Position numbers and translations under genes: made by a program. Below are positions 6,108 to 42,336 of a stretch of DNA of 45,932 nt, piece by piece (the first letter of the stretch is position 1; the number at the start of each line of letters is the position of its first letter). Source of the DNA: a virus; IMG/VR virus record IMGVR_UViG_2654587756_000002. One strand, written 5' to 3'. The notes beneath the pieces are model-generated. The model was not told where the DNA came from. It searched no databases and was given only the letters and a program-made list of their open reading frames with translations.

Positions 6108-7052
6108 TTAAAATTTTTTTATATCATTTATTTTTTTCTTTAGTTGAATATTTTCATAAATAATATGTCTAGCATCAAACTCAAATCTGTTCTTTTGAAT
6201 GTTTTCACATATCTCATGAATATTATTAATTTGGATTTTTCTAAGTTCAATATCTTCTTTAATAAACTTATTCAATTCAAAAATTAAACCAAAAGTATTA
6301 TCAAAATGAGCAGTTGGATAAAAAGCACTGAGCGTAAATGGAATTAAATTAAATTTAAACAAATTTTCTATAATTTTTAAAAAGGATATATCTGTGAAAA
6401 CCCAAAGATGACCATCAAAAATATGATTATTAAAATCATTCACATAATTTGAATAATTATCTAAACAGGCTTTAACATTAGGATTTGGATATTGATCCAA
6501 CTCTTTATTCCAAAAAATTATGGGATTATTAACATTAACCGAATCAATCATACTATCCAATACCAATCGTGGAGTATTAATTTCATCACCTCTTAAATAC
6601 ATATCAAATAAATCTGCAAATGATGAATTTTCTCGAAAATGATCAAATGTAAATTCTTTATTTGGAAGCAATAAACAAAGTTTGCCATTATCAGATAGTA
6701 TTTTACTTATATCTATCAAATGTTGTATTGGATCTGGAACATGCTCTAAAACATGACTAGAAAATACATAATCAAATTTTTCGCCACTATCTTTAAATGT
6801 ATCCTCATAAGATTCTTTAATAACATAATCAATATCAACAATACTATTAATAAATTCTTCATTAGAATTATACGATGAATATATACTTTTAACATCCTCA
6901 GTACTATTTATATCAGCATAATATACATTAAAATCAGATTTATGAAAAAAAGGTTTATTTAATGGACCAATTTCTAAAATTTTTCCATCATTTTTAATTT
7001 CATTTTTCATCCGATCATGTGCACGAACATCTAATGATAAATTGTTGTTCAT
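6108..7052 (-). CDS. Class I SAM-dependent methyltransferase (family A; paralogue of 24808..25755), predicted glycan O-methyltransferase
   Basis: ILEIGP SAM motif, FDYVFSSHVLEHVPDP and short C-terminal heptad tail. SD GGTGA; ATGA overlap with the upstream gene. Confidence 0.85.
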   Translation of the reverse strand: MNNNLSLDVRAHDRMKNEIKNDGKILEIGPLNKPFFHKSDFNVYYADINSTEDVKSIYSSYNSNEEFINSIVDIDYVIKESYEDTFKDSGEKFDYVFSSHVLEHVPDPIQHLIDISKILSDNGKLCLLLPNKEFTFDHFRENSSFADLFDMYLRGDEINTPRLVLDSMIDSVNVNNPIIFWNKELDQYPNPNVKACLDNYSNYVNDFNNHIFDGHLWVFTDISFLKIIENLFKFNLIPFTLSAFYPTAHFDNTFGLIFELNKFIKEDIELRKIQINNIHEICENIQKNRFEFDARHIIYENIQLKKKINDIKKF

Positions 7053-8551
7053 AAACTATCACCAAAAATATTAATATTACTCCAAAAATATATTTTTTTG
7101 TTTTTTACCCAATCAGGAGTTGCTAAATTATCAATAAATCTTTCAACTCTTGCTTCTATAATAACATCAGGATTAATAAATTTTATTAAATTTTCATCAA
7201 CAGTTGCATGGTCCCAACATAAAAATATATCTCGATAATAAAATGAAAAATACCATTTTAATAAATCAAAAGTTGAATCCCTAAATATTAATACAGATTT
7301 ATCTGAGAAACTATATGGATTATACCAATGAAATGATTCTCGTTTATGATAAAATTTAAACTTATCGGGGATGGGAATGGAACTAAGAACAAGAGGTTTT
7401 AAAACTAAATTAAATTTCTCAGTAGGAATATTTTTAAGTTCCAATTGCTCTTTTTTTGAATATGACCAATTTTTATCCGAAAGTAAATCACTATCCCAAA
7501 ATTCATTAATTTCTTTAACATTTGTGTCTAAAAGATTATTCCATGCCCCCATAGTTAATTTTTTATCCATATGATTTAAAAATTTAAATGAAAGAACATG
7601 ACCTCCAAAATAATTAATATGAGTATCAAATTTAAAATAATGAAGATGATTTAAATAATCTTTAAAATCTATAATTTCTTTAACAGAATCCACATTACGT
7701 TTAATTTTATCAAAATGGAATGGAAGAAAATCTTTACATACTATACTTTTATCAGGAATGCAAAAAAAGAAGTACTCAATACCATTATCTTCAAATAATT
7801 CCTTTTTAAAATAATATTCCTCTAAAAAATGTGATTTATTAAATTTATTTTCATAAGTAAAATCAAAATGTTGTCTAATCTCATTATTTTCATCATTGAT
7901 TAAGAATAAATAATTATCTTTACCCTTTAAGCAAAGTTTAAGATTTTGAGATAAAATTTCATCTATTGAAAAATTTTTAGTTAATACATTAGAAGAATCA
8001 TATTTTAAATAAAAAATAAATGGATTAATATTAAAATTTTGTATATTAGGATTTTGACTTAAATAATAATTAGTATCAAAATTCGGATTAGGATTAAAAC
8101 CTTTATGAACACCAACCTCTAAAAAATGAATAATCGGATTAACATCACTATCCAAACCATATTTTTCACAATAATACTCAGAATCAAAAAGATTTGAATT
8201 TAATATAATTAAATAATCTTCAACATCTTGAATATTTGAAAAATTCATATTAAATATTTCCTCAATAGATAAAAATTTAGTTAATCTATGTTCATCTAAT
8301 CCATATTTAATATAATGAACAAAAGGATTAATGTTCTTCTCGTATATGTCAGGATATCTATTACAATAAAAATTAGTATCAAAATTCGGATTAGGATTAA
8401 AACCTTTATGAACACCAACCTCTAAAAAATGAATAATCGGATTAACATCACTATCCAAACCATATTTTTCACAATAATACTCAGAATCAAAAAGATTTGA
8501 TTCATTTATAATTTTATAATCCTCAGAAAAATTCATAAAAACACAACTCAT
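7049..8551 (-). CDS. N-terminal ~36-aa repeat module fused to an AlgX/AlgJ-like (SGNH-like) polysaccharide O-acetyltransferase domain
   Basis: Repeats FDSEYY...NPIIHF...G. C-terminal part has KGKDNYLFL, IPDKSIVCKDFLP, YFKFDTHINYFGG and VLIFRDS, matching AlgX/AlgJ signatures. Start may be 8536. Confidence 0.68.
   Translation of the reverse strand: MSCVFMNFSEDYKIINESNLFDSEYYCEKYGLDSDVNPIIHFLEVGVHKGFNPNPNFDTNFYCNRYPDIYEKNINPFVHYIKYGLDEHRLTKFLSIEEIFNMNFSNIQDVEDYLIILNSNLFDSEYYCEKYGLDSDVNPIIHFLEVGVHKGFNPNPNFDTNYYLSQNPNIQNFNINPFIFYLKYDSSNVLTKNFSIDEILSQNLKLCLKGKDNYLFLINDENNEIRQHFDFTYENKFNKSHFLEEYYFKKELFEDNGIEYFFFCIPDKSIVCKDFLPFHFDKIKRNVDSVKEIIDFKDYLNHLHYFKFDTHINYFGGHVLSFKFLNHMDKKLTMGAWNNLLDTNVKEINEFWDSDLLSDKNWSYSKKEQLELKNIPTEKFNLVLKPLVLSSIPIPDKFKFYHKRESFHWYNPYSFSDKSVLIFRDSTFDLLKWYFSFYYRDIFLCWDHATVDENLIKFINPDVIIEARVERFIDNLATPDWVKNKKIYFWSNINIFGDSL
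8068..8500. repeat. 130-bp identical direct repeat (8068-8197 and 8371-8500), 303-bp (101-codon) offset
   Basis: Base-by-base comparison; encodes the duplicated SNLFDSEYYCEKYGLDSDVNPIIHFLEVGVHKGFNPNPNFDTN. Confidence 0.95.
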
Positions 8552-8557
8552 TTAATA

Positions 8558-9160
8558 TTAATCAATATATTCATCCAAATTATTTAACTTATACTCTATA
8601 TTATTTACTTTTTTTTCTAAATAATCACTGTTAAAATTAAGAATGCCCTTCTTCTTACAAACTAAACAATTATCAAACCAAGGTTTCGCATTTTCATTAA
8701 TTGATATATGTAAAATGTCAAAATTTACATATTCAGCAATAGCTTTCATACCATTTTCATTAAATCTATAACCATCAAATCCAGAATCCCCATGTTTTGG
8801 ACCATTACTTGGAACAATAATACAACAAAATCCTCCCGGCTTTAAAATTCTATCAATTTCATCCATAATAATCCAAAAAAAAGCCAAATGCTCAAATAAT
8901 TGACCAGAAATTACTACATCATATGAACTATCAGGTATTTCATCCCAATGATAAATATTATTCACAAGAATATCAACATTATCCCCCGGATTAAAATCCA
9001 ATCCAACATAATTCCAATTAAGTTTATCAAATAAAAATCGATAATTATAATTATTTCCAGAATTATCTAATGATCCAACATCCAAAATATTAATATTATC
9101 AAAATCATTCAAAAACTTATTTTTAAACCAATTCATTTTATCCATAGAAGATTTATGCAT
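8558..9160 (-). CDS. Class I SAM-dependent methyltransferase (family B, MHKSS-type), predicted glycan O-methyltransferase
   Basis: ILDVGS motif, YDVVISGQLFEHLAFFW and RILKPGG, plus a short C-terminal coiled coil. One of four paralogues. Confidence 0.88.
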   Translation of the reverse strand: MHKSSMDKMNWFKNKFLNDFDNINILDVGSLDNSGNNYNYRFLFDKLNWNYVGLDFNPGDNVDILVNNIYHWDEIPDSSYDVVISGQLFEHLAFFWIIMDEIDRILKPGGFCCIIVPSNGPKHGDSGFDGYRFNENGMKAIAEYVNFDILHISINENAKPWFDNCLVCKKKGILNFNSDYLEKKVNNIEYKLNNLDEYID

Positions 9161-9188
9161 TTTAACACCACTATTAAAATAAACTAAA

Positions 9189-10595
9189 TTAATTCCACAA
9201 TTTACCTCTTACTTTAAATAAAAAACGTTTAATAGAAAATTTATCATTTACATTATCATTCTCTAGAGATAATTTATTAATATATTCTTTTTGATTATTA
9301 TTCTCAATCCTATATTGAGATATTGACGCTTTAAGAGAATTAATAGACTTAATTAACATATTATTTTGTTCAAGCAAGTTTAAATAATCGTTCAATAAAC
9401 TAACTTTTTCTCCATTTAATTTTTTATTTTCATTATATAAAATTACTTTAGTTTGAGTTAAAATATTATTCCTATTTAATAATTTTTCATTCTCCATAGA
9501 TAACCCATCACATTTATCTAGCAAAACACACTTAGATTTAACTAAATCAACATTACGATTAGCCAACTTCTCATTTTCATCAACTAAATCATTATATTTA
9601 TTTAACAAATCATTATTAGAATTAACTAAATCAACAATACGATTAGCCAACTTCTCATTTTCATCAACTAAATCATCACGTTGATTTAATACAATTTGCC
9701 TAGACTTAACCAAAGAAGAATTAATATTATTTAAAGTTTTATTAGTTTCCATAAGATTATTATTTTCATCAATAAATTTGATTTTTTCTTGAGTTAATTC
9801 TTTATTTAATAAAACAATAGAACTTTCTAATTCTGAAATTTTATCCATAGATAATATCATATTTCTCAAATAACTTTTTTCTAATAGAAAAGTAATATCA
9901 CTTTTTTCAATTATATTATTTATTTTAGATTTTAAACTTGATTCATTTGGATAAATAATTCCCAATCCATTAAAAGCCATAATAGTAGAAAAAGATAAAT
10001 CATTTTTAGATTCATGTAAAAAATCCTCAATGGCAGTCAAAACCCCATTTTTAGCACCATTTTCATAAATTGCATTATTTAAATTACAGTTTAATCCTCC
10101 TTTTTCTAATAATTCCGGTGTATCTGGTAACATGCCTTTTTTAGCATACTCATGCAAAAATTCTTTAGGAATTGTTTTGGGATTATAATAAAGATCACGC
10201 CTACCATATGGCCATCCCACATCATGTAAAATAATAATTGGAAATTTTTTCCCAATGAATTTTTTTTCAATTAATTTGAGTTCATTATATACAGTATACC
10301 AATTATGATCCCCATCAATTAATATTACATCATAATCATTAATTTCTTGAAGACAATTTAAACTTAAATCTTTAATTAATTTAAAATGGTCCCCATATTG
10401 ATTTGAAAATTTATTTTCATCAAAAAGAGGGTGGGGATCAATTGTAATTAAATAAGAATTATTTTTAATACAATAACTCAAAATTTTTTCAGTGTTGATT
10501 CCATCTTCAGAACCTATTTCAACAATATTTTTAGGTTTTAACTCTTTAAATAAAGGTAAAACAATAATTTCCCACATACGTCGCATAAATATCAC
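9189..10595 (-). CDS. Methyltransf_24-like SAM methyltransferase with long C-terminal coiled coil
   Basis: IVEIGS and LIDGDHNWYTVYNEL motifs, followed by ~200 aa of heptad-rich sequence and a basic/hydrophobic C-terminus. Start may be ATG 10586. Confidence 0.8.
   Translation of the reverse strand: MIFMRRMWEIIVLPLFKELKPKNIVEIGSEDGINTEKILSYCIKNNSYLITIDPHPLFDENKFSNQYGDHFKLIKDLSLNCLQEINDYDVILIDGDHNWYTVYNELKLIEKKFIGKKFPIIILHDVGWPYGRRDLYYNPKTIPKEFLHEYAKKGMLPDTPELLEKGGLNCNLNNAIYENGAKNGVLTAIEDFLHESKNDLSFSTIMAFNGLGIIYPNESSLKSKINNIIEKSDITFLLEKSYLRNMILSMDKISELESSIVLLNKELTQEKIKFIDENNNLMETNKTLNNINSSLVKSRQIVLNQRDDLVDENEKLANRIVDLVNSNNDLLNKYNDLVDENEKLANRNVDLVKSKCVLLDKCDGLSMENEKLLNRNNILTQTKVILYNENKKLNGEKVSLLNDYLNLLEQNNMLIKSINSLKASISQYRIENNNQKEYINKLSLENDNVNDKFSIKRFLFKVRGKLWN
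9538..9676. repeat. 55-bp direct repeat (9538-9592, 9622-9676; 1 mismatch), 84-bp period = 28 aa = four heptads
   Basis: Direct comparison; encodes DLVDENEKLANR(I/N)VDLV twice. Confidence 0.92.
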
Positions 10596-10670: not shown

Positions 10671-13600
10671 TCAATCCCCCCAATCAAAAATATTCTTATC
10701 TGCAATGTTATAAACAAAGGCATCTGAAATATGATAAATCTTTAAACATTTAACATATCGAATATAATCAGATAAAATATTAGATAAAGACAAATCTTCA
10801 AAAGAATTATTAACATCAAATTGGAATGAATCCAATACTTCAGATTTTAAATAAACACAGAATAAAGGTGCCCAATTTAATTCTAAGATTTTTCCATCAT
10901 GATAATTTTCCATATTTATAATATTATCATAAAATATTGATGGCGTAATATCACATTTAAAATATGGATTAGCATATGGAACATGAGATTTAATATTTTT
11001 ATCACCATCAGGCAAAATTTGCTGAGAAACAATCATACCAGAATCTGAAAGTTCATAAGCATATTTTTGCATGAATTCAATAGCCCCTTCCGTTAAAACT
11101 GCGTTAACATCCAATATTAATAAATCGAAGTTAACATCATGCAACCCCTGAAGTTTAGTAAACAAAGATGATTCATCAAAATCATCATCAACCAAAGATA
11201 AAACTTCTATACTATTATTCAATTCAAGATAATCCAAATATTCTTTTATAGAAGTATTTAAATCATTATCAATAACAACAATATCCAACATATCATCCAA
11301 ATTTAATTTAAATAACCTATTAATTGCTTCATGAATATCGATTAAAGATTTAATATTATGAAGTATAACTTTAATTTTTTTATTTAATTGATAATAAGGC
11401 TTCTTAATAATCATGTTATTATTATGAATATTATGAGCATAATTTTTAAATAATTCCATCATTTTTTCATGATTTTTAGAAGAATAATCACTAATTCTAT
11501 TTTTTGCGGCATCAAAATAATATTTTGAAAGAATAAAAGGAACAGAATATATTTTAAAATAATTAGAAATTTTTAAAACAAAATCCCAATCAACTAAACG
11601 ATTTAAAGACTCGTTAAATCCACCCAACCTATTATACACTGTTTTCTTATGAGCAAGACAATTTAAATCTATATAATTTCCATTTAACAATAACGATTTA
11701 TTAAATGATCCAAATCTAACTGCAAAAGGAGAATCGCCAAGATTCCTATAAAGAAATTGTCCAGAATAAATAGCATCAGCATCAGGTAATTCTAAAAAAG
11801 CACCCATAACAGCATCAATATAATTATATTCCCACTCATTATCAGAATCCAAATATAATATATAATCTCCATTAGCTTTACTCAAACCAATATTACGAGC
11901 AGCAGAAGAGCCACCATTAATTTTACTACATATAACTTTTACACGATCATCAGAAATAGATTTTAATACATCAACAGTATCATCAGTACTTGCATCATCA
12001 ACGATAATTAATTCAAGATTTTTATATGATTGATTTAAAACTGTGCTGACAGCATTAAGAACAATATCCGCACGATTATAAACAGGCATGATAATAGAAA
12101 CCAATGGTTTAAACTCATTATTTTGAGATTTATTTTTTAAATAATTAGCAATATTATCCATGATTAAAAAACATCTATTTTCATATTCTGTAAAAGGAGC
12201 ATGAATTATTGGAGAAAGATATGAATTAACTAAAAATTGACTGAAATTTAGAATTGAATCATTTTTAATTTCAGAATTTAAAAACGGTTTATCATCAATA
12301 ATTTCTTTAGATGAATTATCACCAGAAATTGAATAAAGTTCTGAAAAACAACGAGTAATATTAATAATCATATTTTTTATATTTTCATCAGGATAATGAA
12401 GTTTTCTTATAATCTCATAATATTTTTCTGACGAAAACAAATTGAAAAGCCCAGAATAAGAATACTGATTAAAATACATAGGAATATCATATGTATGATA
12501 ATATTCATTAACTAAAGAACCAAAATTATTACTATCCAAAAGAACAGGAACACACATCTCCTTAGATTGGAAAATTACATCATAAAAACCTGAAAATTTA
12601 TTAATAAGCACAACAAAATCCGGATTAATATCATGAGAAATATTTGAAAAGCGATTAATATCAAATAATCCATGATAAACACCATACTCATCCAAATTTG
12701 AATTATCTGATAAGAAATGCAAATCCAAATAATTATTTAAATCTTCTTTTTTAAGATTATCGATTAATTTGATGCCTATTTCATCAATATCCCCAACAAA
12801 TAATAATGTTAAACTAATATTATCCTTATTAAATATATCAATAAGTTTATTATTTAATTTTGGAAAATCAATATATTTTACTACACCATTAGAATTATTT
12901 AAAAAGGGATTATAATCCATAGATTCATTTTTATCTATTATCAGATTAGAGTTACTTAATAATTCAGAAACATTAACCTGCCAATTACTCCAAATATTCC
13001 TAAAAATATTACTATTACACTTTTTGAAATCACAATGAATAAAACAAGAATTTCCATTAAAAGGACATATTAGATAATCATTATTACAATTTAATACCCG
13101 ATTAATATTAAGCAAGTTACTAATATCCAATAAATCAAAAGAGTTATTTTTAAAATTAATTATATGAATAATATTGATATTTAATAAAAATAATATATTA
13201 AAATAAAAATCTCTAAATAGTTCATTTCTCAATTCATTATTTTCAATATTTAATTTTAAATCCCATTTTTGAATTAAATTAAAGTTATCCCAAAGTTTAA
13301 AACCATCACCATTAGAAGTTAAGAAATAACAATCATAATATAACAAAGAATAATAACCCATGTAATCTTTAAAAGAACAAAATTCTTCCTCAGTCAATAT
13401 ATATAGTATTCTATTAGACAAAGTATAATCTCTTTTATCCAAAATTGCCAAATCCAAATCACGTTTGAAATCCTCATAAACAGAAGATTTTAAAAATTTA
13501 TTCAATTTTAATTCAGAACAAAAATCATTAACATGATTATCAAATAAATGATAGTTATCTTCAAAAAATACATTATCATGATAAATATAAGTAGAATCAT

Positions 13601-15983
13601 CAATAACATGAAGACCTTTATGAATTGGTAAATAACAAGAACTATTCTTTGAATCAAAAACAAAAAACTTTTTATTGAATAAGAATTCTTTAGAAAAATT
13701 AAACTTAACATAAATACAAAAAGCATCTGAAATTGAAGAATATATTAAATCATGATTTGAAGATTTTCTTAAAAAAGTATTAATTCCATTGGTCACCAGC
13801 ATATAATCATTATAATCAGATGCCTCTGAAAATGGAAAAATATCACTCATAAAATTAGAACATGGTGAAACAAAACCAATTTTTTGATTAGAATATGCTT
13901 TAACAATTAGTTTTGTTAACCAATTATAAGAAACTTCAGTATATGAATTTAACAAGACAAAATCACTATTTAAACCCAAAATGAATTCATCAATATCCTC
14001 AAATAAAATATCATCATTACTATAAATTATTTCTATATTTTCTTTAAATAATAACTCACAATCATTAAATTCTTTTTCAAACAAATTTTTATCTATAAAA
14101 ATTATTAAATTAAATGAATTAAAAGTATTATTAAAAATAGATTCAATACAATCAAAAATTTTATCAGAATAATTATGAATAGGCAATATAATATATACAT
14201 CATTATTTAAATTATCAATAATTCTGGAAATATCCTCATTTAAAAATTGATTATTTGAAAATGACCAGCAATTTGTCTTTAATCCCTTTTCTTTTCCAAT
14301 TAAAAAATAATGGGTCAGAGGATTCCACAATTTTGTATCAACTAAATATTTAGTAGTATAATATTTATTTGAAAAACTAATTGAAGGATTTCTATAGTCA
14401 GTATAATAACCATATTTAGAATAATGATAAATTGGATTTAAATTTGCATCACGAACATCTTGATTTGTAGATAAATAATATTCAGAATCCAATAAATCAG
14501 ATTTTTTAATAATGAATTCATTGATTTCGAAGTTATCCGCATCGATATTATCCTTAAAAAATGAAAATTCAATACCATATAATAAATAAAAAACAAAAGG
14601 ATTTAAACCAAATTTATTAATAAACTCATCTTTTGGGGAAATATAATCTTTAAAGTCATTAAATGGAATACAATTTTCATCAACACCAAAAGTAAGATAA
14701 TGATCAATAGGAGATAAACCACAATTTAAAACATCAGGATATGATCCTATATAAAATTCCTCATCAAAAAGTCCTGATTGCTCTACTATAGATTTACTTT
14801 GATTAACAAGAAAAGTGTTAAACGATGAAGAAATTTCATTATCATAATATTCCATCACTTTTTCATATAATAAATTAGATTTATTCCGTTTATTTGAATT
14901 TAATACATTTAACCAATTATCTATTAAATTTTTAATAGTATAATTCATTTTAACATCCTTTATCGCATTGTAAAGAATAGATTGTCTTAAATCAAAATTA
15001 TTTATTAATTTCAGTAAATTTTCCTCCCACTGCTCCGTAGTATTATTCTCTACCAACATACCATTTTTTTCATGAATAATTGCTTTTGAATAGGGACCAA
15101 CATCACTATAAATGGCTGGAACATTTAATGCCGTGTACTCCAAATATTTAAGTTCACTTTTACTTAAATTAATTTTATCCTCTTTGACTAAAGGCGCGAT
15201 TGCAATATCCCAATCGACCGCATCTTGTAACCATGGAACAAAATCCGGATAATATGATTTATCCGAAGGAACTCTAATAATATTAATACCCTCAATATCT
15301 TCAGTTGTACCTTCGATAATCTCAAATATTACTTTTTTATCAGATAGACTACTTTGAATATTTTTAATTGCATCAATAATTATTTTTAAATCTTTAGTAT
15401 GTGTTCTTGTACCCATATATCCAATTTTAATAATATGTGAATCATCATGCAATTTAGAATTAAAATCAAGTTCCCAATAATCAGATAATGCATTAGGAAT
15501 AACGACAACATTATCATTAAAAGCATCCATTTGAATCTTCAAAACATCTGTGGAAACAGTAATACAATCAGCATTCTGAGCCAAAAAACGCATAGCTGGA
15601 ATTTTATGAACAAATTTATGATAAATAGGAGATGATTTTTCCATATTAATAATATCATCATCAATTTCAAAAATTAATTTAACTCCAAATAATTTACATT
15701 TATCAACCAGTAATTTAGTAAACTCCCAATCAAGAACATCTCTTTGAACAATAACAATATCCAAAAGTAAAAAATCAGATTCTAAATCTTGTTTAAATTT
15801 AACAAAATCCCTTTCATCAATCACATAAGGTTCAAAATCTTTACAAATATTGCTAAATGGAGAAAAAATCCTAATATAATTACTAGCAATATAATTTCCT
15901 TGTGTAATTAATCCAACATTCTGCTTATAATCATTAACATATTCAAATTCAGAATATCTTTTTATTCTATTTTCATATCTCAT
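10671..15983 (-). CDS. 1770-aa multidomain glycosyltransferase (GT-B domain, repeat module, degenerate GT2-like and GT4-like domains, intact GT2, degenerate GT2-like tail)
   Basis: N-terminal EIDDD, IGYMGT, WDIAIAPL and KSELKYLEY. Intact GT2 VSIIMPVYNR...IIVDDAS...YLDSD. Uninterrupted 5.3-kb ORF with SD GGAG. Confidence 0.85.
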   Translation of the reverse strand: MRYENRIKRYSEFEYVNDYKQNVGLITQGNYIASNYIRIFSPFSNICKDFEPYVIDERDFVKFKQDLESDFLLLDIVIVQRDVLDWEFTKLLVDKCKLFGVKLIFEIDDDIINMEKSSPIYHKFVHKIPAMRFLAQNADCITVSTDVLKIQMDAFNDNVVVIPNALSDYWELDFNSKLHDDSHIIKIGYMGTRTHTKDLKIIIDAIKNIQSSLSDKKVIFEIIEGTTEDIEGINIIRVPSDKSYYPDFVPWLQDAVDWDIAIAPLVKEDKINLSKSELKYLEYTALNVPAIYSDVGPYSKAIIHEKNGMLVENNTTEQWEENLLKLINNFDLRQSILYNAIKDVKMNYTIKNLIDNWLNVLNSNKRNKSNLLYEKVMEYYDNEISSSFNTFLVNQSKSIVEQSGLFDEEFYIGSYPDVLNCGLSPIDHYLTFGVDENCIPFNDFKDYISPKDEFINKFGLNPFVFYLLYGIEFSFFKDNIDADNFEINEFIIKKSDLLDSEYYLSTNQDVRDANLNPIYHYSKYGYYTDYRNPSISFSNKYYTTKYLVDTKLWNPLTHYFLIGKEKGLKTNCWSFSNNQFLNEDISRIIDNLNNDVYIILPIHNYSDKIFDCIESIFNNTFNSFNLIIFIDKNLFEKEFNDCELLFKENIEIIYSNDDILFEDIDEFILGLNSDFVLLNSYTEVSYNWLTKLIVKAYSNQKIGFVSPCSNFMSDIFPFSEASDYNDYMLVTNGINTFLRKSSNHDLIYSSISDAFCIYVKFNFSKEFLFNKKFFVFDSKNSSCYLPIHKGLHVIDDSTYIYHDNVFFEDNYHLFDNHVNDFCSELKLNKFLKSSVYEDFKRDLDLAILDKRDYTLSNRILYILTEEEFCSFKDYMGYYSLLYYDCYFLTSNGDGFKLWDNFNLIQKWDLKLNIENNELRNELFRDFYFNILFLLNINIIHIINFKNNSFDLLDISNLLNINRVLNCNNDYLICPFNGNSCFIHCDFKKCNSNIFRNIWSNWQVNVSELLSNSNLIIDKNESMDYNPFLNNSNGVVKYIDFPKLNNKLIDIFNKDNISLTLLFVGDIDEIGIKLIDNLKKEDLNNYLDLHFLSDNSNLDEYGVYHGLFDINRFSNISHDINPDFVVLINKFSGFYDVIFQSKEMCVPVLLDSNNFGSLVNEYYHTYDIPMYFNQYSYSGLFNLFSSEKYYEIIRKLHYPDENIKNMIINITRCFSELYSISGDNSSKEIIDDKPFLNSEIKNDSILNFSQFLVNSYLSPIIHAPFTEYENRCFLIMDNIANYLKNKSQNNEFKPLVSIIMPVYNRADIVLNAVSTVLNQSYKNLELIIVDDASTDDTVDVLKSISDDRVKVICSKINGGSSAARNIGLSKANGDYILYLDSDNEWEYNYIDAVMGAFLELPDADAIYSGQFLYRNLGDSPFAVRFGSFNKSLLLNGNYIDLNCLAHKKTVYNRLGGFNESLNRLVDWDFVLKISNYFKIYSVPFILSKYYFDAAKNRISDYSSKNHEKMMELFKNYAHNIHNNNMIIKKPYYQLNKKIKVILHNIKSLIDIHEAINRLFKLNLDDMLDIVVIDNDLNTSIKEYLDYLELNNSIEVLSLVDDDFDESSLFTKLQGLHDVNFDLLILDVNAVLTEGAIEFMQKYAYELSDSGMIVSQQILPDGDKNIKSHVPYANPYFKCDITPSIFYDNIINMENYHDGKILELNWAPLFCVYLKSEVLDSFQFDVNNSFEDLSLSNILSDYIRYVKCLKIYHISDAFVYNIADKNIFDWGD

Positions 15984-24730: not shown

Positions 24731-24807
24731 CTCATAATAAATTTTAAATATTAGTTTTAATAATGTATTAATGTTATTATTAATTATTGTTACTTTTGGT
24801 GAGTTAT

Positions 24808-33120: not shown

Positions 33121-34190
33121 ATGCCCAATATAAATAAATCTATCCTTAATAGTAATTTAGAATTCATACAACTTAAACTTTTTGATTTTTCTAGCGAGAA
33201 AATTAATCAAGAAAAAATCATTTCAGAAAGATTAAATAAAGTACCATATTTTGAAAATACTAATTTAAAACTATTTTTAGATAAAAATAACACTTTTAAA
33301 TAGGATAATTCAATTTATCCCAATTGTAGATCACATAAAATTATTAAAAAAAATACAATAACTAAAAATAAACAAAATATAAATGGAAAAACTACAGAAT
33401 TTAAAGAACAGCAGCAACGCAAAATGTGGAAAAAAATTTGGAATAAAAAATAATCCATTAATTGAAGAACATGAACAATTTTTACAAGAAATTATGATTA
33501 AAATTTCATTAATAATAAAAATCAGATATCAATCACTTCGTAAAATAAGTAAATACTTCGAAATATTCCTTGGAATTCGAATATCACACCAAACAATCAA
33601 TTGGTCAGACAAAAATCACGAAGAAAGAATCAACAACAAAGAATTCGAATATTCTGACTATTATTTATATGACGAGCAATTAAGGCTTAATGGAGTTAAA
33701 CACTACAAATTAACTATATATGATGCAATACTCAATATTCTAGTCTCAGAACAAATTGTACGCCACAGAATACCTGAAAATACTAAAAAATTTATTCTAG
33801 ATTCAACGACAAATAAACCATTTATTTGCTTAACAACCGATTTATTTCCAATGTACCGTAATGTGACATAGGAAATAAAAGTAAAACATCAATTATGCAA
33901 ATTTCATCTATTTCAAACAATAAATCATAAATTAAAAGTGTATTTTCGACGAAACCAAATAAATGAAAAATCAAAAGACCATATTTACGAAAATGCAAAT
34001 GAATTGAAAAATTGTTTCAGACAAAATTCAAAACAAGAAACAATCAATCAATTTAACAATATTTACAAAACTACAGAGCAATTCCCGTCGTATTAAAAGA
34101 TTTCATTAGAAAACACACAATTATGCACTTTCACAGATAAGTAAAACACTTAAATGATGAAAATATAGAAAAAACATCAAATAAAGTAAC
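33121..34190 (+). pseudogene. ISM1/ISNCY-like transposase relic 4 (same subfamily as relic 1)
   Basis: Fragments 33121-33303 and 33383-33871 (YDEQL, LTTDLFPMY), then HQLCKFH. Shares the upstream 17-mer TTTAAAAATAGTTAAAT with relic 1. Confidence 0.75.
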
Positions 34191-34640: not shown

Positions 34641-34703
34641 AAATGACCAAATAAAATTAAAAAATTGTGACTTCATGCCGCATCCTCAAAAAATAAAAAA
34701 AAG

Positions 34704-36902
34704 TCATTTTTTAAATATATTATTAAAAAATCTTTTATTTAAAAGTTCATTATATTTTTTAAGAAGATACTTATTTCTATCTTCCAAAACCATAATTTTA
34801 TTTGATTCATTTGAACTATTGAATTGATTGTATTTAAATGATACATTTAAATTATTATCTTTTTTTGCTAAAATTTTAACAGAATTATACAATTCTTTAT
34901 TCAAATTAATATTATTATCAATTTTTTCAAAGTTTTTTTCTAAATCTTTTGAAAACAAAGCCAAATTACTAATTTCATTTTGGATTCTATCAATTTCTTT
35001 TAAATAAATATTATTTTCCAAAAATCCCAAATCAACTGAATCATTGCTTAAATTCAATTTATACTCCATTATAGAATTTGAATTCATAATTGCATTAAAA
35101 CGTTTCAATGCATTATTTCTTTTTATAATACCAACATATGCATCAGTATTTAAAAAATTCATATCCTCAATTGCTAACTTAACCATTTTAAAATAATCTT
35201 CAGAATGAGAAGAACTAATATACATTGATAATTGAGTTATTTTAAAAATTGAAAAATCCTCCCTGAATTCATCAAAACAACCCTCATTTTCAAGAAAATT
35301 TTCAACATAATCGATAATTTTGAATATATCTGGAGCATTAGATGCAGTGTTATTAACAGAATTTGGATTAGATAACCTGTAATGATAAAAAAATTCTGGA
35401 ACATAAGAAATTCTTTCTGCCCGAATCATTGATTGAACATGGAATGGTACATCATCAAAAGCAACATTCGTATGAAATCTAAAGTCATTATATTTATCCA
35501 AAAATTCTTTTTTATAAAATTTAGTCCAAGGTGCAAATGAACTCAAAAGAACATGCCTTTTTATAGCCCGATAATTAAATGTAAAATTATCAAAATCAAC
35601 ATCATTAAAAATTTTTTCAAATTCAAACCCTGGTTCATCATAATTTATAGGTTCACCATCCCTAAAACTAGCTATTTTAAATATTACAAAATCGGAATTA
35701 TTTGAAATTGCATTATCATATAATTTTTCTAATGCATTTGGAGTTAAATAATCATCGGGATCAAAAAAGTAAATATAATCCCCTTTAGCATTATCCAATG
35801 CTTTATTTCTAGCAGCACCACAACCTTGATTTTCTTGATTGATGATTTTAATTCTATCATCATTCTTTGCAAAATCTTCCAACATTTTTAAAGAGTTATC
35901 CTTAGAACCATCATTAACACAAACTAGTTCAATATCTTTTAATGTTTGATTTAATAAACTATTAATTGATTCATCAAGGAATTCTTCTGCGTTATATACT
36001 GGAATAATTAAGGAAACTTTAATTTTATTGAAAAAAGAATCACAAGCATTTATAATTAATTCATCATCTTTAAAAACATCATGAACAATATTTTTAATTT
36101 CATTTTTATCTTCAGATGAATTCTCAGGAGATTTAAGATAATAAAATAATTGATTTTTATATTGATTAGATAAATTATCAAAACCTGAATTTTGTAATAT
36201 TTCAAAAACTAACTTAAAGTGTTCAATATAATCATGTTTCTTTCGATGTGTATTTATTTTACCGAAATTATTGCCTGCAGAACGTAATGCATAAAAATCA
36301 ACAGGAACCGTAGAAAAATTGTCTAATTTAGATAAAATTTCAGCAAAAAATACTGGATCCTGACCTCTAAGTAAATCAGGAAATTTAAAATTATTATCAA
36401 TTATAAATTCTCTCTTGAAAATATTTTTATAAAAAGAGTAGGGTATACCATAATCTTCAGGTTTTAAAATTTCATGTTTGGAAAATCGCCTAAGATTTTT
36501 ATTAATTATCAATTCACCATTTAAATCTATAACTTTAAGATTAGCAGAAATCATAGAAGTATCATCTTTAATAGCTACATCATACATTTGTTCTAATGCG
36601 GTTTTATCAATAAACATATCATCAGAATCTAAAAATGCAATATACTCACCATTAGTATGTATCATAGCATTATTTCTTGCAATGCCTGAACCTTGATTTT
36701 CTTGATTAAAAATTTTAATTTTTTCACCATATTTTGATTTATAATTTTTTAAAATTTTTAAAGAATTATCAGTTGATCCATCATTAATACATATGACCTC
36801 CAAATCTGTTAAAGTTTGATTAAATACACTATCTAATGACTCCCGAATCACTTTTTCATCATTATAAACTGGCATTATAACTGAAATTTTAATTTGATTC
36901 AT
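34704..36902 (-). CDS. Tandem GT2-GT2 glycosyltransferase with C-terminal coiled coil
   Basis: Two domains, ISVIMPVYN...NDGS...FLDSDD and VSLIIPVYN...NDGS...FFDPDD. SD GGAGGA. Confidence 0.92.
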   Translation of the reverse strand: MNQIKISVIMPVYNDEKVIRESLDSVFNQTLTDLEVICINDGSTDNSLKILKNYKSKYGEKIKIFNQENQGSGIARNNAMIHTNGEYIAFLDSDDMFIDKTALEQMYDVAIKDDTSMISANLKVIDLNGELIINKNLRRFSKHEILKPEDYGIPYSFYKNIFKREFIIDNNFKFPDLLRGQDPVFFAEILSKLDNFSTVPVDFYALRSAGNNFGKINTHRKKHDYIEHFKLVFEILQNSGFDNLSNQYKNQLFYYLKSPENSSEDKNEIKNIVHDVFKDDELIINACDSFFNKIKVSLIIPVYNAEEFLDESINSLLNQTLKDIELVCVNDGSKDNSLKMLEDFAKNDDRIKIINQENQGCGAARNKALDNAKGDYIYFFDPDDYLTPNALEKLYDNAISNNSDFVIFKIASFRDGEPINYDEPGFEFEKIFNDVDFDNFTFNYRAIKRHVLLSSFAPWTKFYKKEFLDKYNDFRFHTNVAFDDVPFHVQSMIRAERISYVPEFFYHYRLSNPNSVNNTASNAPDIFKIIDYVENFLENEGCFDEFREDFSIFKITQLSMYISSSHSEDYFKMVKLAIEDMNFLNTDAYVGIIKRNNALKRFNAIMNSNSIMEYKLNLSNDSVDLGFLENNIYLKEIDRIQNEISNLALFSKDLEKNFEKIDNNINLNKELYNSVKILAKKDNNLNVSFKYNQFNSSNESNKIMVLEDRNKYLLKKYNELLNKRFFNNIFKK

Positions 36903-39141
36903 AATAATCCTCCTTTACAGATTTTAAAACATCAGGATAATAATCAATAACCTGTTTAAGTTGTAAATCATTTCCACCATCAAAATTTGATGAATATAAA
37001 GTTTTTTCATTAATAATATTTAATTCTCTCGCCAAGTTAATATAAGTTAATTGAAACATATTATTTTTCACACATTTTATTTTAGTTTTATTTAAAATAG
37101 CCATAGCCCATACCCAAATATCATCAGCAGTAGGACATAATTTTTCAAATAATTCATTATTACAAACATCCTCATGTAAAGAATTCGGTGGAAATAATGA
37201 TCCCGCACCATTTGTAGAAAGATTAATGAAAGAAGGTTTAGTTTCACCAACATTTAATTCCCAATCATTATAACTTTCAAAAGAGCCCTCCGTATTTAAA
37301 GAAACATTTCTTGATCTCTGGCAAATAATATACTTGGGATTTTTTTTATGCTCATCATACAATAATTCTAACCAATTTTTAGGATAAAATAAATCATCAT
37401 CAGCAGTGACAATCAAATCATTTGGATATTCAGATAATGCTGGAATTAACTTTTTATAGGATTTAACATCTTTACACCACTTAATCTTTAAACCAAACTT
37501 TTTAAGATTTAAAACATTCGGAGGAATATCATTTTCACCATTAGGAAATTGATCAGAAGCTAACCACAAAACAACTTCATCAGGTTTAATACTTTGATTA
37601 AAAATTGAGAATATGCAATAATGAATATCATATAACCTTTCAGGAAACGAAGTTAATGAAACAATTAATTTTTTATCTCTTTTATGAGTTGTAACACCAA
37701 ATTCATTAAAATTTTTAATTTTAGCATCCAATAACCGTTTATTAATCGATTTATGATAAGGATATACATCTTTATTTATTAAAACATTACCTTCATCAAT
37801 ACCATATAAAACAAAATAAAGTAATGGATTTAATTTAGAATTAATAATATTAATGTTAGAACTTTCATAAAATTTCCCATCGAATGAAACACTAGGATTT
37901 TTACCTTGATTATGGCCTATAGAAAGATAATGTAATAATGGATTAAAATTAAGAGTATAATTATATTTTGACCGATAATATTCATAATCAAATAAATCCC
38001 ATTTTTCAATTAAATCAATACCTTTAAATAATTCATCAATCGAACAATTTTCAAATAATAATCTCAACATAATCAATTGAGAATTAATATTTATTAAAGC
38101 TTTATTAAAATTGTTTAAATTATCATACAATATTGACAAATTATCAAGAGTTTGTTTTTCATTCTTAATAGATATTGCAATTTTACTTGCTTCATGAAAA
38201 TTTTTATTAGAGATTTCTTTAAATAATGAATTATACTCTTTATGAGGGCGAAGATTATCATTTTTTTCAAATTCAATAAATAAAAAATTGCAATCCTTTA
38301 AAAGATTGACACGATCTTCAAATACCAAATCACTATCAATAAATTGACTAATCCAATAATTTAAACGAGAAAGGCCAACATAAGTTAATTCCTCACCAAC
38401 AGACAATAATAAATCATATAATTCAAAATAAGAATCATATAATCCTTTCAAATATGTTTTATTTCTTTCATAACTAACCGATTTTTCAATAGATGAATTT
38501 CGAATAACATACTCAAAAACTGGAAAATCAATGAAAGAAATCCCATGGGCATGTAAAAAATAGTTTGTAGAAAAAACCAAATCTTCACCAGGCACACCAA
38601 TAGGAAATTGAATATTATTTTCTAATATTACTGATTTTTTATAAATTTTAGACATTATGGCCGGAGGATATATCAAAATTTTAAAATCTTCAAAAACATT
38701 ATTAAGTTTAAAATCCTTTTCAAAGAAAATATGATTATTCTTTATACCATCATCATTTGTAACATAATAACCAGATACCAAATCCAAATCATTATTATAA
38801 ATTTCTTGATACAATTTTTCACAAGCATCATGATAAAAAATATCATCCGAATCTAAAAACATTATATAATCAGATGTTGCATTTTGAATACCCACATTAC
38901 GGGGTTGACCTCCAAATCCACTATTATCATTTAATAAAATACATTTAACATTATCATACTCAAGAGAATATTGTTTTATAATTTGTCTGGAGTTATCAGT
39001 CGAATAATCATCAACAAATATCAATTCAATATTTTCAAAACCAATAGATTGTTCTTTAATTGAATTAAATGAATCATGAATATAATTTTCAGAGTTATAA
39101 ACTGGAATAATTATGGAAATTAAATATTTTTCACCATACAT
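36889..39141 (-). CDS. GT2 glycosyltransferase + ~36-aa repeat module + second GT-A-like domain
   Basis: ISIIIPVYN...FLDSDD; FDYEYY...NPLLHY...G repeats; C-terminal IVSLTSFPER...KSYKKLIP...TADDDLFYP. Confidence 0.88.
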   Translation of the reverse strand: MYGEKYLISIIIPVYNSENYIHDSFNSIKEQSIGFENIELIFVDDYSTDNSRQIIKQYSLEYDNVKCILLNDNSGFGGQPRNVGIQNATSDYIMFLDSDDIFYHDACEKLYQEIYNNDLDLVSGYYVTNDDGIKNNHIFFEKDFKLNNVFEDFKILIYPPAIMSKIYKKSVILENNIQFPIGVPGEDLVFSTNYFLHAHGISFIDFPVFEYVIRNSSIEKSVSYERNKTYLKGLYDSYFELYDLLLSVGEELTYVGLSRLNYWISQFIDSDLVFEDRVNLLKDCNFLFIEFEKNDNLRPHKEYNSLFKEISNKNFHEASKIAISIKNEKQTLDNLSILYDNLNNFNKALININSQLIMLRLLFENCSIDELFKGIDLIEKWDLFDYEYYRSKYNYTLNFNPLLHYLSIGHNQGKNPSVSFDGKFYESSNINIINSKLNPLLYFVLYGIDEGNVLINKDVYPYHKSINKRLLDAKIKNFNEFGVTTHKRDKKLIVSLTSFPERLYDIHYCIFSIFNQSIKPDEVVLWLASDQFPNGENDIPPNVLNLKKFGLKIKWCKDVKSYKKLIPALSEYPNDLIVTADDDLFYPKNWLELLYDEHKKNPKYIICQRSRNVSLNTEGSFESYNDWELNVGETKPSFINLSTNGAGSLFPPNSLHEDVCNNELFEKLCPTADDIWVWAMAILNKTKIKCVKNNMFQLTYINLARELNIINEKTLYSSNFDGGNDLQLKQVIDYYPDVLKSVKEDYYESN

Positions 39142-39147
39142 AAAACA

Positions 39148-40476: not shown

Positions 40477-40486
40477 TCAAATCACA

Positions 40487-41302
40487 TTAAATAGAGAACC
40501 TATCATGTTTTTTATTTCGTATAAATAATTTTTCAATAAAATCTAATTTTTCTTCAACTTTAAAGTTAGATAATAATGAAGAAACTTTATTAAAGTCCAA
40601 TGTTTCACCAGGTTTTTGAGAATACACATATATTCCACTCACATACTCATCGACATTTTCGGAGTATTCATTTTCAAAGTTACCTACATAATCCTTTGTA
40701 AAAAATACTTCTTTTTTTAACAAATTAATTGGATTTCCACCATATAAATTATTAGACTCTAACTTAACATAAGATGGCACATAAGAATAATTATCAATAA
40801 TAGATCCAGATCCAATATTTACTCCTTTACTCACATAAGACAAATGTCCCAGCCATACATGGTCCCCAATTAAAACACTGCCACTATGATTAACTCTTTT
40901 TTTAGTATTTATATCATAAACAATATGTGCATCAGAGGTTCTAATATTTGTACCACTACCGATTATACCTTCATCACCAATAATTAAATTTTGATGCTCT
41001 TGAACATTAATATTAATTGGAGGAGTCAAATTGTTATCCCTACCTATAAAAACAACAGAATTTTGAAAAATATGTAAATTAAAAGAGTAATTACTATTAG
41101 TACTTGATAAATAGATTAAAGAGTTGCTGCCCCCAAATAATATTGAGCAATCAACTAAATTCACATTATTTTCACAATATAATACATTTCCAGAACCGTG
41201 AAATGTAATTTTTGAACTAGACATATTAGGGTTTCCAGTAATCCTATTCTCTTTTAAAGATGAAAAATCATCAATACTTCTTACAATTTCCATAATAAAC
41301 AC
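40487..41302 (-). CDS. Left-handed beta-helix (hexapeptide) acyltransferase
   Basis: LIIGDEGIIG, IRTSDAH, VLIGDHVWLG and IGSGSII. Start may be ATG 41293. Confidence 0.82.
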   Translation of the reverse strand: MFIMEIVRSIDDFSSLKENRITGNPNMSSSKITFHGSGNVLYCENNVNLVDCSILFGGSNSLIYLSSTNSNYSFNLHIFQNSVVFIGRDNNLTPPININVQEHQNLIIGDEGIIGSGTNIRTSDAHIVYDINTKKRVNHSGSVLIGDHVWLGHLSYVSKGVNIGSGSIIDNYSYVPSYVKLESNNLYGGNPINLLKKEVFFTKDYVGNFENEYSENVDEYVSGIYVYSQKPGETLDFNKVSSLLSNFKVEEKLDFIEKLFIRNKKHDRFSI

Positions 41303-41307
41303 TTCTT

Positions 41308-42336
41308 TTAATCATAAGCTCGACATTCCAATATTGTATCTGCAATAAATGTCCAAGGTTGTTCTTTAGATAAAATAAATTTATATCCCAAATCCAAATG
41401 ATCAATCCAAGGTTTTATATCAAAAAAATCATCAACACTATGATAAATACTCAAAAATAAAATTGGCTTTTGAGTTTTTAATGTATTAATTGCTCCTTTA
41501 AGGAGATTTTTTTCTTCACCTTCAACATCTACCTTAATAAGACCAACATTTAAATTATTTTCTTCAACATAAGAATCAATCGTCATTGATTGAATTGAAA
41601 AAGAATTATCAAATTTTCGCCTATTTGAATCAGACGTTATTCCCTGATAATTATCTCCAGAGACATATAACTCCATTTCACCATTCTTATCACTTAATGA
41701 AGCTTGAACCGGTACAATATTAGTTATATTATTCAGTTTAATATTTTGAACCAGTTTTTCATAAGATTCTTGAAATGGTTCAAAAGCATAAACATTACTT
41801 GAAGTTAAATTTGATAAAGATATTGAGGAATCTCCAGTATAAGCACCAGCATCAATTATATCCTTATCTTTTAAGAATTCTTTATCTTTATCATTAAACG
41901 GGTCATTAGCAAAACAATGAATATTGAAATTATTATCAACAAATTCATAATCCAATATCTTATTTTCTGACATGCATTCTAATTCAAATTGAGAAAATCT
42001 ATTTTGTTCTTCAACTTCAAAATTATTGAATAAAGTATCCCTTTTCATAAAATTAACAGCGATAGCACGTAAATATGCAAATCTAAAATAATTTTGTGAT
42101 TCTTTAGGTAAATCTTTTATCATTTCAGATAATTTATCCCCAAAATCTTCTCGATAAAAATAATCTATATAATCCCAATCACAAAAACTTCCGGCATTTT
42201 TCTTAATCCTATTCTGATAAGAAATAAATTTAATTCTTTCTTTAAGTTCTTTATTTTCTTCTAGAAGCTTTTCATAATTTTCTTTATAAAAATTATATTG
42301 ATTACTTTTAGATAATAATTTATTTTTAAAATTCAT
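41308..42336 (-). CDS. FkbM-family SAM methyltransferase
   Basis: IIDAGAYTGD, VYAFEP, TIDSY and IKVDVEGEE. ATGA overlap with the upstream gene. Confidence 0.9.
   Translation of the reverse strand: MNFKNKLLSKSNQYNFYKENYEKLLEENKELKERIKFISYQNRIKKNAGSFCDWDYIDYFYREDFGDKLSEMIKDLPKESQNYFRFAYLRAIAVNFMKRDTLFNNFEVEEQNRFSQFELECMSENKILDYEFVDNNFNIHCFANDPFNDKDKEFLKDKDIIDAGAYTGDSSISLSNLTSSNVYAFEPFQESYEKLVQNIKLNNITNIVPVQASLSDKNGEMELYVSGDNYQGITSDSNRRKFDNSFSIQSMTIDSYVEENNLNVGLIKVDVEGEEKNLLKGAINTLKTQKPILFLSIYHSVDDFFDIKPWIDHLDLGYKFILSKEQPWTFIADTILECRAYD

Follow-up and report, generated by a model that had tools for sequence, protein, structure and literature searches.

In Escherichia coli O8 and O9a, an O-antigen exported by the ATP-binding cassette (ABC) transporter Wzm/Wzt is ended by WbdD, which provides a methyl or phosphomethyl chain terminator, and this system is one of three precedents for the model that we propose here for a methyltransferase-rich locus of an archaeon. 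The locus is contained in the IMG/VR record IMGVR_UViG_2654587756_000002 (45,932 nucleotides, the whole of which is hereafter called the window), which corresponds to bases 2141917-2187848 of the single-contig genome (2,543,538 bp) of Methanobrevibacter millerae SM9 and encodes eight intact S-adenosylmethionine (SAM)-dependent methyltransferases. By analogy with the described systems, we consider, with a probability of roughly 60%, that the window forms the central part of a low-GC stretch of about 50 kb carrying at least three modules for ABC-transporter-dependent cell-wall glycopolymers. These polymers are probably teichoic-acid-like or rhamnose-containing.

Several other bacterial systems share part of this organisation. 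In the S-layer glycan cluster of Geobacillus stearothermophilus NRS 2004/3a, WsaE combines an N-terminal O-methyltransferase with two rhamnosyltransferase domains, the former adding a 2-O-methyl cap by which growth of the rhamnan is stopped ahead of ABC export; more generally, bacterial S-layer glycan clusters present ABC genes upstream, low-GC glycosyltransferase genes in the centre and rml genes downstream (PMC2943079). The accessory cluster of the Pseudomonas aeruginosa common polysaccharide antigen, or CPA (pa5455-pa5459), encodes two glycosyltransferases, one acetyltransferase and two partly redundant methyltransferases, whose overexpression shifts chain length (PMC3560663). The wall teichoic acid system of Gram-positive bacteria (TagF, TagGH) is a further point of comparison.

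The SM9 locus resembles the WbdD system in the predicted cytoplasmic assembly of the polymer by soluble multidomain glycosyltransferases, in the ABC-2 exporter encoded beside it, and in a methyltransferase with a putative long coiled coil and a basic C-terminus (9189-10595), whose gene comes directly after that of a giant glycosyltransferase. It differs in that this methyltransferase has no sequence relationship with WbdD detectable in PDB searches and no kinase domain, that seven further methyltransferases are present, and that it belongs to an archaeon, which has a wall of pseudomurein and lacks an outer membrane. The G. stearothermophilus cluster is similar in layout and in its rhamnose precursor genes. 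As in WsaE, the bacterial homologues of one of the SM9 families (family B, see below) are N-terminal domains of GT2 fusions, and a methyl cap ending the chain before export is also what we propose for SM9; this likeness is one of architecture, and the SM9 methyltransferases are separate genes, except for a dead tail on a GT4 glycosyltransferase. With the CPA cluster, the SM9 locus would share an ABC-exported rhamnan modified by several methyltransferases and an acetyltransferase, but CPA has two methyltransferases against eight, belongs to a bacterial lipopolysaccharide and shows no scrambling by insertion sequences (IS). Finally, a PF04464 domain, the ABC-2 pair and the high wall phosphate reported in the genus recall teichoic acid synthesis, whereas in SM9 the TagF domain shares its polypeptide with a pair of GT2 domains, no TagO, TagA, TagB and TagD set is present in the locus, methylation and acetylation are found instead of D-alanylation or simple glycosylation, and the SM9 polymer is predicted from genes.

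Methanobrevibacter species are the main methanogens of the rumen and of the human gut and, to our knowledge, their wall glycopolymers have never been chemically defined, even though such polymers are the surface met by phages, by host immunity and by anti-methanogen vaccines. Walls of M. ruminantium contain rhamnose, galactose, glucose and mannose, with phosphate at teichoic-acid-like levels (PMC2812497), and 3-O-methylation of glucose residues has been proposed in the S-layer glycoprotein glycan precursors of Methanothermus fervidus (PMC5744192), which together make methylated, phosphate-containing wall polymers plausible.

Organization of the locus and the nearby exporter

The SM9 genome has a G+C content of 31.8% and was sequenced by 454 only (PMC4987999). 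The G+C content of the locus is 21-27%, against 30-35% at its left border. Three modules can be recognized (coordinates of individual genes in Table 1). Module 1 is a minus-strand operon (15983 down to 6108) in which a 1770-aa glycosyltransferase gene is followed by genes for a Methyltransf_24 protein with a coiled coil, the family B methyltransferase B1, a 500-aa protein and the family A methyltransferase A1, with gaps or overlaps of at most 75 bp; rmlA, rmlC and rmlB come after A1, and rmlD lies outside the locus (genome 2488980-2489810). Module 2 corresponds to two plus-strand GT4 genes, one of them with a dead methyltransferase-like tail. Module 3, again a minus-strand operon (45932 down to 34704), runs from a GT2-GT2-TagF giant through FkbM, an LbH acetyltransferase and two GT2 genes to a GT2-GT2 gene, all of which overlap or are separated by at most 10 bp. 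The TagF part of the giant is a CDP-glycerol glycerophosphotransferase domain (PF04464, Glyphos_transf; residues 846-1197, E 3.2e-47). Four of the eight methyltransferases (Methyltransf_24, B1, A1 and FkbM) are thus embedded in operons, packed behind giant glycosyltransferases. The others (B2, A2 and the tandem B4 then B3) stand alone; they are found within, or bordering on, 14 kb of IS-ridden DNA that separates the modules.

An ABC-2 permease (255 aa; ABC2_membrane, E 8e-17) and an ABC ATPase (455 aa; ABC_tran, E 3e-20) are encoded on the minus strand at genome positions 2191112-2193248 (L021:4110-6249). This pair lies 3.3 kb past the end of the window, upstream of module 3 and on the same strand as the TagF giant; the space between the stop codon of the ATPase gene and the ATG of the giant consists wholly of IS debris. 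No Wzx, Wzy or flippase-like protein was detected by Pfam among the window open reading frames (ORFs) of at least 100 aa. An ABC-2 pair in the absence of Wzx and Wzy is what characterises ABC-transporter-dependent pathways, whose polymers are completed inside the cell before they are exported.

A second ABC-2 pair (49-61% identical) is present at genome positions 2485649-2489810, where it adjoins the sole clear rmlD of the genome; the rml pathway is thus divided over two wall-polymer loci.

Eight intact methyltransferases of four families

The first-pass annotation of the window, made from the sequence alone, had listed eight intact SAM methyltransferases (two of family A, four of family B, one Methyltransf_24 and one FkbM), and Pfam agrees for all of them. 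The four family B proteins score 35.8-39.4 bits with Methyltransf_11 (curated cut-off 21.2), and A1 and A2 score 36.4 and 34.5 bits with Methyltransf_23 (cut-off 27). A1 and A2 are 54% identical; the family B paralogues are 52-71% identical, close to the 55-70% that had been estimated by eye. All copies of family A, of family B and of the Methyltransf_24 plus coiled-coil protein in the SM9 genome fall inside the window, and of the 18 Methyltransf_11-type matches across the genome, 6 are located there as well. This concentration of methyltransferases in 46 kb is more than chance.

Families A and B are two uncharacterised methyltransferase families that we define here. The AlphaFold2 model of B2 (mean predicted local distance difference test score, pLDDT, 87.9) presents a seven-stranded, Rossmann-like class I fold that superimposes on 1vl5 with Z 18.1 and a root mean square deviation of 2.4 Å over 154 residues (VIA); many other methyltransferases match it at Z 15-18. 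Residues D27, G29, D32 and D55 are invariant in 43 family B sequences. Both SAM-binding features of the class are present: a motif I loop behind strand 1, which reads DIGSLDTSG and is an atypical variant of DxGxGxG, and an acidic residue closing strand 2. Judging from this model, family B proteins are class I (Rossmann-fold) SAM-dependent methyltransferases. The model of A1 (pLDDT 95.2) shows a class I core that is interrupted by a helical insert and ends in a C-terminal helix of 46 aa, and matches 3cc8 with Z 11.4 over 164 residues (VIA). PDB profile searches with families A and B, and searches with the Methyltransf_24 and 500-aa proteins, gave marginal matches to generic methyltransferases or none. 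WbdD was not among the PDB sequence matches for A, B and the Methyltransf_24 protein, nor among the listed fold matches. NCBIfam contains no model for family B, for the Methyltransf_24 protein, for the 500-aa protein or for the 170-aa protein encoded next to B2.

By inspection of the sequence, residues ~245-455 of the Methyltransf_24 protein are heptad-like over about 200 aa and include a duplicated LVDENEKLANR block, and its C-terminal end is basic and amphipathic (KRFLFKVRGKLWN). None of the eight methyltransferases, nor the acetyltransferases, contains a transmembrane-like segment (Kyte-Doolittle, threshold 1.6), which suggests that decoration is cytoplasmic and takes place before export. 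At the same threshold, the glycosyltransferases of the window also lack such segments, the 1770-aa giant alone showing a single borderline peak (1.64).

Three acetyltransferases had been proposed to accompany these enzymes. The LbH protein is confirmed, with WbbJ/WcaF-type NCBIfam matches below cut-off. The XAT-type protein is confirmed too, but its gene lies outside the 6108-42336 interval in which the glycan locus had been placed. The third, described as AlgJ-like, is the 500-aa protein, which has no match in Pfam, NCBIfam or PDB sequences; the lead comes from the ESM Atlas, in which residues 203-500 point to PF16822 AlgX/SGNH clusters (score 0.83-0.84, TM-score 0.47-0.50).

Conserved gene order in related species

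We compared the locus with 150 other Methanobacteriaceae genomes, using 20-kb contexts for the carriers. Strong family B matches (E < 1e-60) are present in 5 of the 13 other species of the genus and in two species of other genera; four further genomes have weak matches alone (E ~1e-13). Names attached to family B homologues include Methanobrevibacter and Methanosphaera. The carriers hold one or two copies against four in SM9, so that 14 species of the genus hold between 0 and 4 copies. This variation agrees with the first-pass annotation, but the related loci routinely hold three methyltransferases per 20 kb, against eight in the SM9 window, and a Pfam scan of their unassigned ORFs detected no further methyltransferases. 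FkbM proteins are found in 57 and Methyltransf_24 proteins in 117 of the 150 genomes, many of them inside ORFs of 1000-2500 aa, indicating that glycan-type methyltransferases are routine in the family.

The gene order is best conserved around module 3. In genomes G066, G111 and G147, one or two ABC-2 genes are followed by a GT2-GT2-TagF giant of about 1200 aa, FkbM, a B4-type gene, a B-alpha-type gene (the type of B3) and the LbH acetyltransferase. The giant, FkbM and B genes are found in two more species, together with LbH in G140 (in which one B gene and LbH lie upstream of the giant, with no ABC match in 20 kb) and without a detected LbH in G033, in which B-alpha is fused to FkbM. The orthologues of the giant are 52-54% identical to the SM9 protein, those of FkbM behind it 48-52%, those of B4 65-67%. 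In G066, G111, G147 and G033 the permease gene neighbours the giant; an ATPase gene accompanies it in G066, G111 and G033 but not in the G147 stretch; the ABC pair and the giant are co-directional in SM9 and divergent in these three genomes. LbH orthologues (43-55%) occur in G066, G111, G147, G140 and G092, adjoining B genes in four of them. Module 1 also has a counterpart, in G092, where an orthologue of the 1770-aa giant (1778 aa, 44% identical) has a B gene and a repeat protein nearby, LbH is encoded 70 bp from this B-flanking repeat protein, and the ABC-2 pair is beside a different glycosyltransferase.

The tandem B4-type then B-alpha is conserved in G066, G111, G147 and G033. In SM9, FkbM and LbH abut (5-bp gap) and the B4/B3 pair is found 10 kb away amid IS debris, a gene order suggesting that the pair was displaced or comes from a dismantled second copy of the module. 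The conserved set (ABC-2 exporter, GT2-GT2-TagF giant, FkbM, B4/B-alpha pair and LbH acetyltransferase) is testable and predicts O-methylated, O-acetylated, phosphate-containing polymers.

Domain fusions in bacterial homologues provide the best functional clue for family B. The bacterial B domain is N-terminal in GT2 plus TPR proteins of about 1400 aa named 'O-antigen biosynthesis protein' or 'glycosyltransferase', and is also fused to FkbM, Methyltransf_24 and CmcI domains. These fusions mirror the adjacencies observed in archaea, with Methyltransf_24 beside B1 in the window and FkbM beside B in the relatives, so that a family widespread in gut methanogens is, in bacteria, joined to O-antigen-type glycosyltransferases. 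Family A has a different distribution: it was not found in the 150 other Methanobacteriaceae genomes, its strongest matches are some 24 protein clusters without a name, and those relatives that do carry one come from bacteria, at 36-40% identity (Treponema, Fibromonadales, Ruminococcus and Desulfitobacterium).

Age of the family B paralogues and the degenerate ninth copy

In a tree of 143 rows, B4 groups with the upstream tandem gene of each relative as a starred subfamily of its own, and B1, B2 and B3 fall in different subclades, each closer to foreign sequences than to the other paralogues of the window. Each of these three has a metagenome relative at 91-96% identity, and B1 forms its own subclade with metagenome relatives at 91-100%. 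The existence of these nearer foreign relatives indicates that the B copies are old or were acquired separately, as had been supposed from their divergence; recent duplication of the four copies within the genome is ruled out by the tree. The ratio of nonsynonymous to synonymous substitutions (dN/dS) between paralogues is 0.26-0.55 (NG86), compatible with constraint, but this evidence is weak because AT bias compresses dS.

The annotation had also described a degenerate fifth B copy fused to a glycosyltransferase. The tail of the second GT4 protein of module 2 is indeed B-like, yet just 31-35% identical to family B (tblastn). It is frameshifted at a run of seven T (19289-19295), which may be a homopolymer error since the genome was sequenced by 454 only. 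Compared with the 43-sequence alignment, nearly all family-invariant residues are replaced (D27E, G29T, G53K, D55F, G86L, Q87E, E90K and H91I), so the tail is a pseudo-methyltransferase in whatever frame it is read. We rejected this ninth copy as a switchable functional methyltransferase, the SAM-binding residues of the family being lost. No intact fusion of a GT4 with a B-like domain was found in the 150 related genomes, in which the tail retrieves just ordinary B genes at E ~1e-6.

Insertion sequences and rearrangement of the locus

The stretch between the modules contains transposase genes at several stages of decay, and no glycosyltransferase remnant was detected between 20630 and 34704, where transposase debris is found. 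The intact IS4-type transposase of the window has copies at 96-98% identity elsewhere in the genome. The decayed IS66-like debris at 25969-29380 is the left copy of an inverted duplication of 3.4 kb, whose right copy begins shortly after the window ends (extended coordinates 45973-49135; genome 2187889-2191051) and fills the space between the exporter and the giant. Its core (27520-29380 against 48174-46316) is 98.2% identical over 1861 bp and its flanks are 81-83% identical (blastn). The two copies bracket a 16.6-kb segment containing B3, B4, three GT2 genes, LbH, FkbM and the TagF giant, and are a possible substrate for inversion or gene conversion.

In G066, an intact 401-aa transposase is encoded between FkbM and the B4-type gene (L011:7261-8466). 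Its residues 103-253 are 81% identical to the product of the window ORF 33383-33871, and it is 33% identical over 113 aa to the IS66-like fragment at 31242-32039, so that members of one IS family adjoin the B tandem both here and in SM9. Another IS-rich region of the SM9 genome (1684823-1720491) carries two further FkbM-type genes (1686932-1687378 and 1720048-1720491), and the two IS families of the window are also represented in it.

Proposed role and alternative explanations

By analogy with WbdD (PMC3482155) and WsaE, the SM9 methyltransferases would most likely cap and decorate wall polymers that are teichoic-acid-like or contain rhamnose. The soluble giant glycosyltransferases would assemble and complete these polymers on a lipid carrier inside the cell, with soluble methyltransferases and acetyltransferases modifying them in the cytoplasm in their lipid-linked form. 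The non-reducing end is probably capped by one methylation or more, which would halt chain growth before export. The best candidate for this WbdD-like terminator would be the Methyltransf_24 protein, with its coiled-coil tail as a putative ruler, and the remaining methyltransferases, including the stand-alone ones insofar as they are expressed, would decorate the repeat units. The number of methyltransferases is best explained by several adjoining modules after IS-mediated rearrangement: SM9 would have eight where its relatives have three because it joins at least three modules, which accumulated side by side, and no dedicated combinatorial device would be needed. The locus is an archaeal case of an already known kind of system, and the high methyltransferase count is not itself a new mechanism.

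Several observations weigh against this interpretation. Half of the methyltransferases (B2, A2, B3 and B4) are unlinked to any glycosyltransferase gene, and fold and sequence matches are to generic class I enzymes, with no WbdD, WsaE, TylF-type or sugar O-methyltransferase standing out in Foldseek, VIA and PDB sequence searches. The exporter ATPase of SM9 lacks a C-terminal carbohydrate-binding module like that of the cap-reading Wzt proteins; its ATPase domain is C-terminal and its sole extension is N-terminal, about 200 aa long, acidic, of low complexity and variable between relatives. No initiating phosphoglycosyl transferase is encoded in the locus, the two PF00953 genes being located at 0.78 and 1.12 Mb, and the small cytidylyltransferase genes found elsewhere in the genome could not be assigned to CDP-glycerol supply (TagD).

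The first-pass annotation had gone further and viewed the locus as a combinatorial glycan-decoration system, in which each paralogue methylates a different sugar or position and a variable methylation code results. In such a model, the presence, absence or on/off state of the paralogues would yield a pattern that serves to vary phage or host recognition. The surface-glycan part of this proposal holds, given the operons with giant glycosyltransferases, the synteny and the fusions of B with GT2/TPR proteins. A 'combinatorial code' exceeds the evidence, and we found no support for a regulated variation of combinations; half of the methyltransferases are of uncertain activity. As a whole, the proposal appears unlikely. 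It does agree with the age of the paralogues, each with nearer relatives outside the window, with dN/dS values that point to genes constrained but diverging, and with a repertoire that differs between species, family B varying in copy number within the genus and family A being confined to SM9 among the Methanobacteriaceae genomes compared. The low G+C content (22-25% against 31.8%), the abundance of IS and the 1.86-kb inverted repeats (98% identical) around the 16.6-kb module, which could allow inversion, also fit. But this variation is between species and not within a strain, no invertible promoter or recombinase was seen, and the sole slippage candidate, the T7 run, is in a domain without SAM-binding residues and may be a 454 error. 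Nor did we find support for a separate sugar or position for every paralogue. B4 then B-alpha is a fixed, conserved tandem and not a free element, and this pairing, like the fusion of B-alpha to FkbM in one genome, suggests a set acting together. A related reading, in which the methyltransferases have distinct regiospecificities on at least two ABC-exported polymers and their repertoire is reshuffled by IS, so that strains differ in methylation patterns, seems to us similarly improbable. Such reshuffling could include the flipping of the TagF/FkbM/B4-B3 segment between its repeats, an event that would separate the segment from the ABC operon; if true, this would be a case of methylation-based surface variation in a pseudomurein-walled archaeon.

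Conversely, the locus may be decaying, with B2, A2, B3 and B4 as silent leftovers or IS passengers, the four operon methyltransferases alone being active and their count ordinary. The transposase debris with no glycosyltransferase remnants around these genes, the position of the B4/B-alpha pair (between FkbM and LbH in relatives, 10 kb off in SM9), the IS family abutting the same pair in G066 and the recent rearrangement that the inverted duplication represents all fit this scenario. Yet the four stand-alone ORFs are intact at 23% G+C while the neighbouring transposases are shattered, they retain every family-invariant residue, intact relatives at 91-96% identity exist in metagenomes and dN/dS is below 1; moreover, detached genes can still act in trans on polymers. 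We consider decay doubtful. Some methyltransferases, notably those of family A, might instead act on nucleotide-sugar precursors such as dTDP-4-keto-6-deoxyhexose, or on non-glycan lipids or proteins. A1 adjoins rmlA, rmlC and rmlB in a locus devoid of rmlD, the Foldseek list of family A includes the dTDP-sugar C-methyltransferases KijD1, MtmC and TcaB9 (TM-score ~0.38), and the fold matches of family B include phosphoethanolamine and lipid N-methyltransferases. These matches are no better than those to dozens of unrelated class I methyltransferases, family A appears to lack the zinc-binding N-terminal domain expected of TcaB9-type enzymes, and the fusions of B to GT2/TPR proteins point to action at the polymer level, making precursors or non-glycan substrates very improbable. 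Compared with these alternatives, the capping and decoration of ABC-exported wall polymers, encoded by adjoining modules, remains our preferred explanation.

Other features of the region

Table 1. Features annotated in the window (coordinates in window positions; E values from Pfam profiles unless another source is named).
Feature	Coordinates	Strand	Evidence
UDP-glucose/GDP-mannose dehydrogenase, precursor supply	1429-2733	-	UDPG_MGDP_dh N, central and C domains, E 2e-65
XAT-type hexapeptide acetyltransferase	2781-3410	+	Hexapep E 7e-12; NCBIfam Vat/CatB-type E 4e-47, below equivalog cut-offs
rmlB; rmlC; rmlA (dTDP-6-deoxyhexose precursors)	3413-4477; 4434-4991; 4998-5885	-	GDP_Man_Dehyd/Epimerase, dTDP_sugar_isom, NTP_transferase
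Family A methyltransferase A1, last of module-1 operon, 4-bp overlap with upstream gene	6108-7052	-	Methyltransf_23 E 5.5e-9
500-aa protein, N-terminal ~36-aa repeats and possible AlgX/SGNH-like O-acetyltransferase domain	7049-8551	-	
Family B methyltransferase B1	8558-9160	-	Methyltransf_11 E 1.9e-9
Methyltransf_24 protein with coiled coil	9189-10595	-	PF13578 E 9.4e-11
1770-aa multidomain glycosyltransferase (GT4-type, repeats, GT2), head of module 1	10671-15983	-	Pfam
GT4 glycosyltransferase	16226-17881	+	Glycos_transf_1 E 9e-33
GT4 glycosyltransferase with degenerate family-B-like tail (19032-19489)	17889-19489	+	Glycos_transf_1 E 2e-10
170-aa protein	19497-20009	-	No Pfam match; Kyte-Doolittle peak 2.8, residues 1-29
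Family B methyltransferase B2, stand-alone, adjoins IS	20019-20630	-	Methyltransf_11 E 1.3e-8
Intact IS4-type transposase	21199-22590	+	DDE_Tnp_1 E 4e-19; genomic copies by tblastn
Transposase fragment	22960-23445	-	DDE_Tnp_1_6 E 4e-16
Family A methyltransferase A2, likely start 24808, isolated amid IS debris	24787-25755	+	Methyltransf_23 E 2.2e-8
Decayed IS66-like debris, left copy of 3.4-kb inverted duplication	25969-29380	.	blastn; transposase remnants
Family B methyltransferase B3 (B-alpha type), second in conserved tandem	29964-30572	-	Methyltransf_11 E 1e-9
Family B methyltransferase B4 (short subfamily, 171 aa), first in conserved tandem	30588-31103	-	Methyltransf_11 E 2.9e-9
IS66-like transposase fragment	31242-32039	-	DDE_Tnp_IS66 E 2e-7
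GT2-GT2 glycosyltransferase, 732 aa, last of module 3	34704-36902	-	Glycos_transf_2 E 5e-74, two stretches
GT2 glycosyltransferase with shared repeat module, 750 aa	36889-39141	-	Glycos_transf_2 E 2e-40
GT2 glycosyltransferase, 442 aa	39148-40476	-	Glycos_transf_2 E 6e-35
LbH (WbbJ/WcaF-like) acetyltransferase	40487-41302	-	Hexapep E 4e-8
FkbM-family methyltransferase, 4-bp overlap with stop of giant	41308-42336	-	PF05050 E 4e-17; TIGR01444 E 1e-29
GT2-GT2-TagF giant, 1199 aa, head of module 3	42333-45932	-	Glycos_transf_2 twice, E 1e-73; Glyphos_transf

The methyltransferase-rich locus is bordered by a gene for S-adenosylhomocysteine hydrolase (window 1-1251), the enzyme that clears the product of every SAM-dependent methyl transfer; this proximity may be a coincidence. 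The 170-aa ORF located 9 bp downstream of B2 encodes a protein whose N-terminus is a clear hydrophobic anchor, the only one in the region. A repeat module of about 36 aa is common to the 500-aa protein, the 1770-aa glycosyltransferase and the 750-aa glycosyltransferase (7953-8525, 14349-14792 and 37780-38013). It is also present in the 180-aa protein that adjoins the B gene of G092 (L015:10471-11013), and further copies are found at positions 2470033-2480414 of the SM9 genome.

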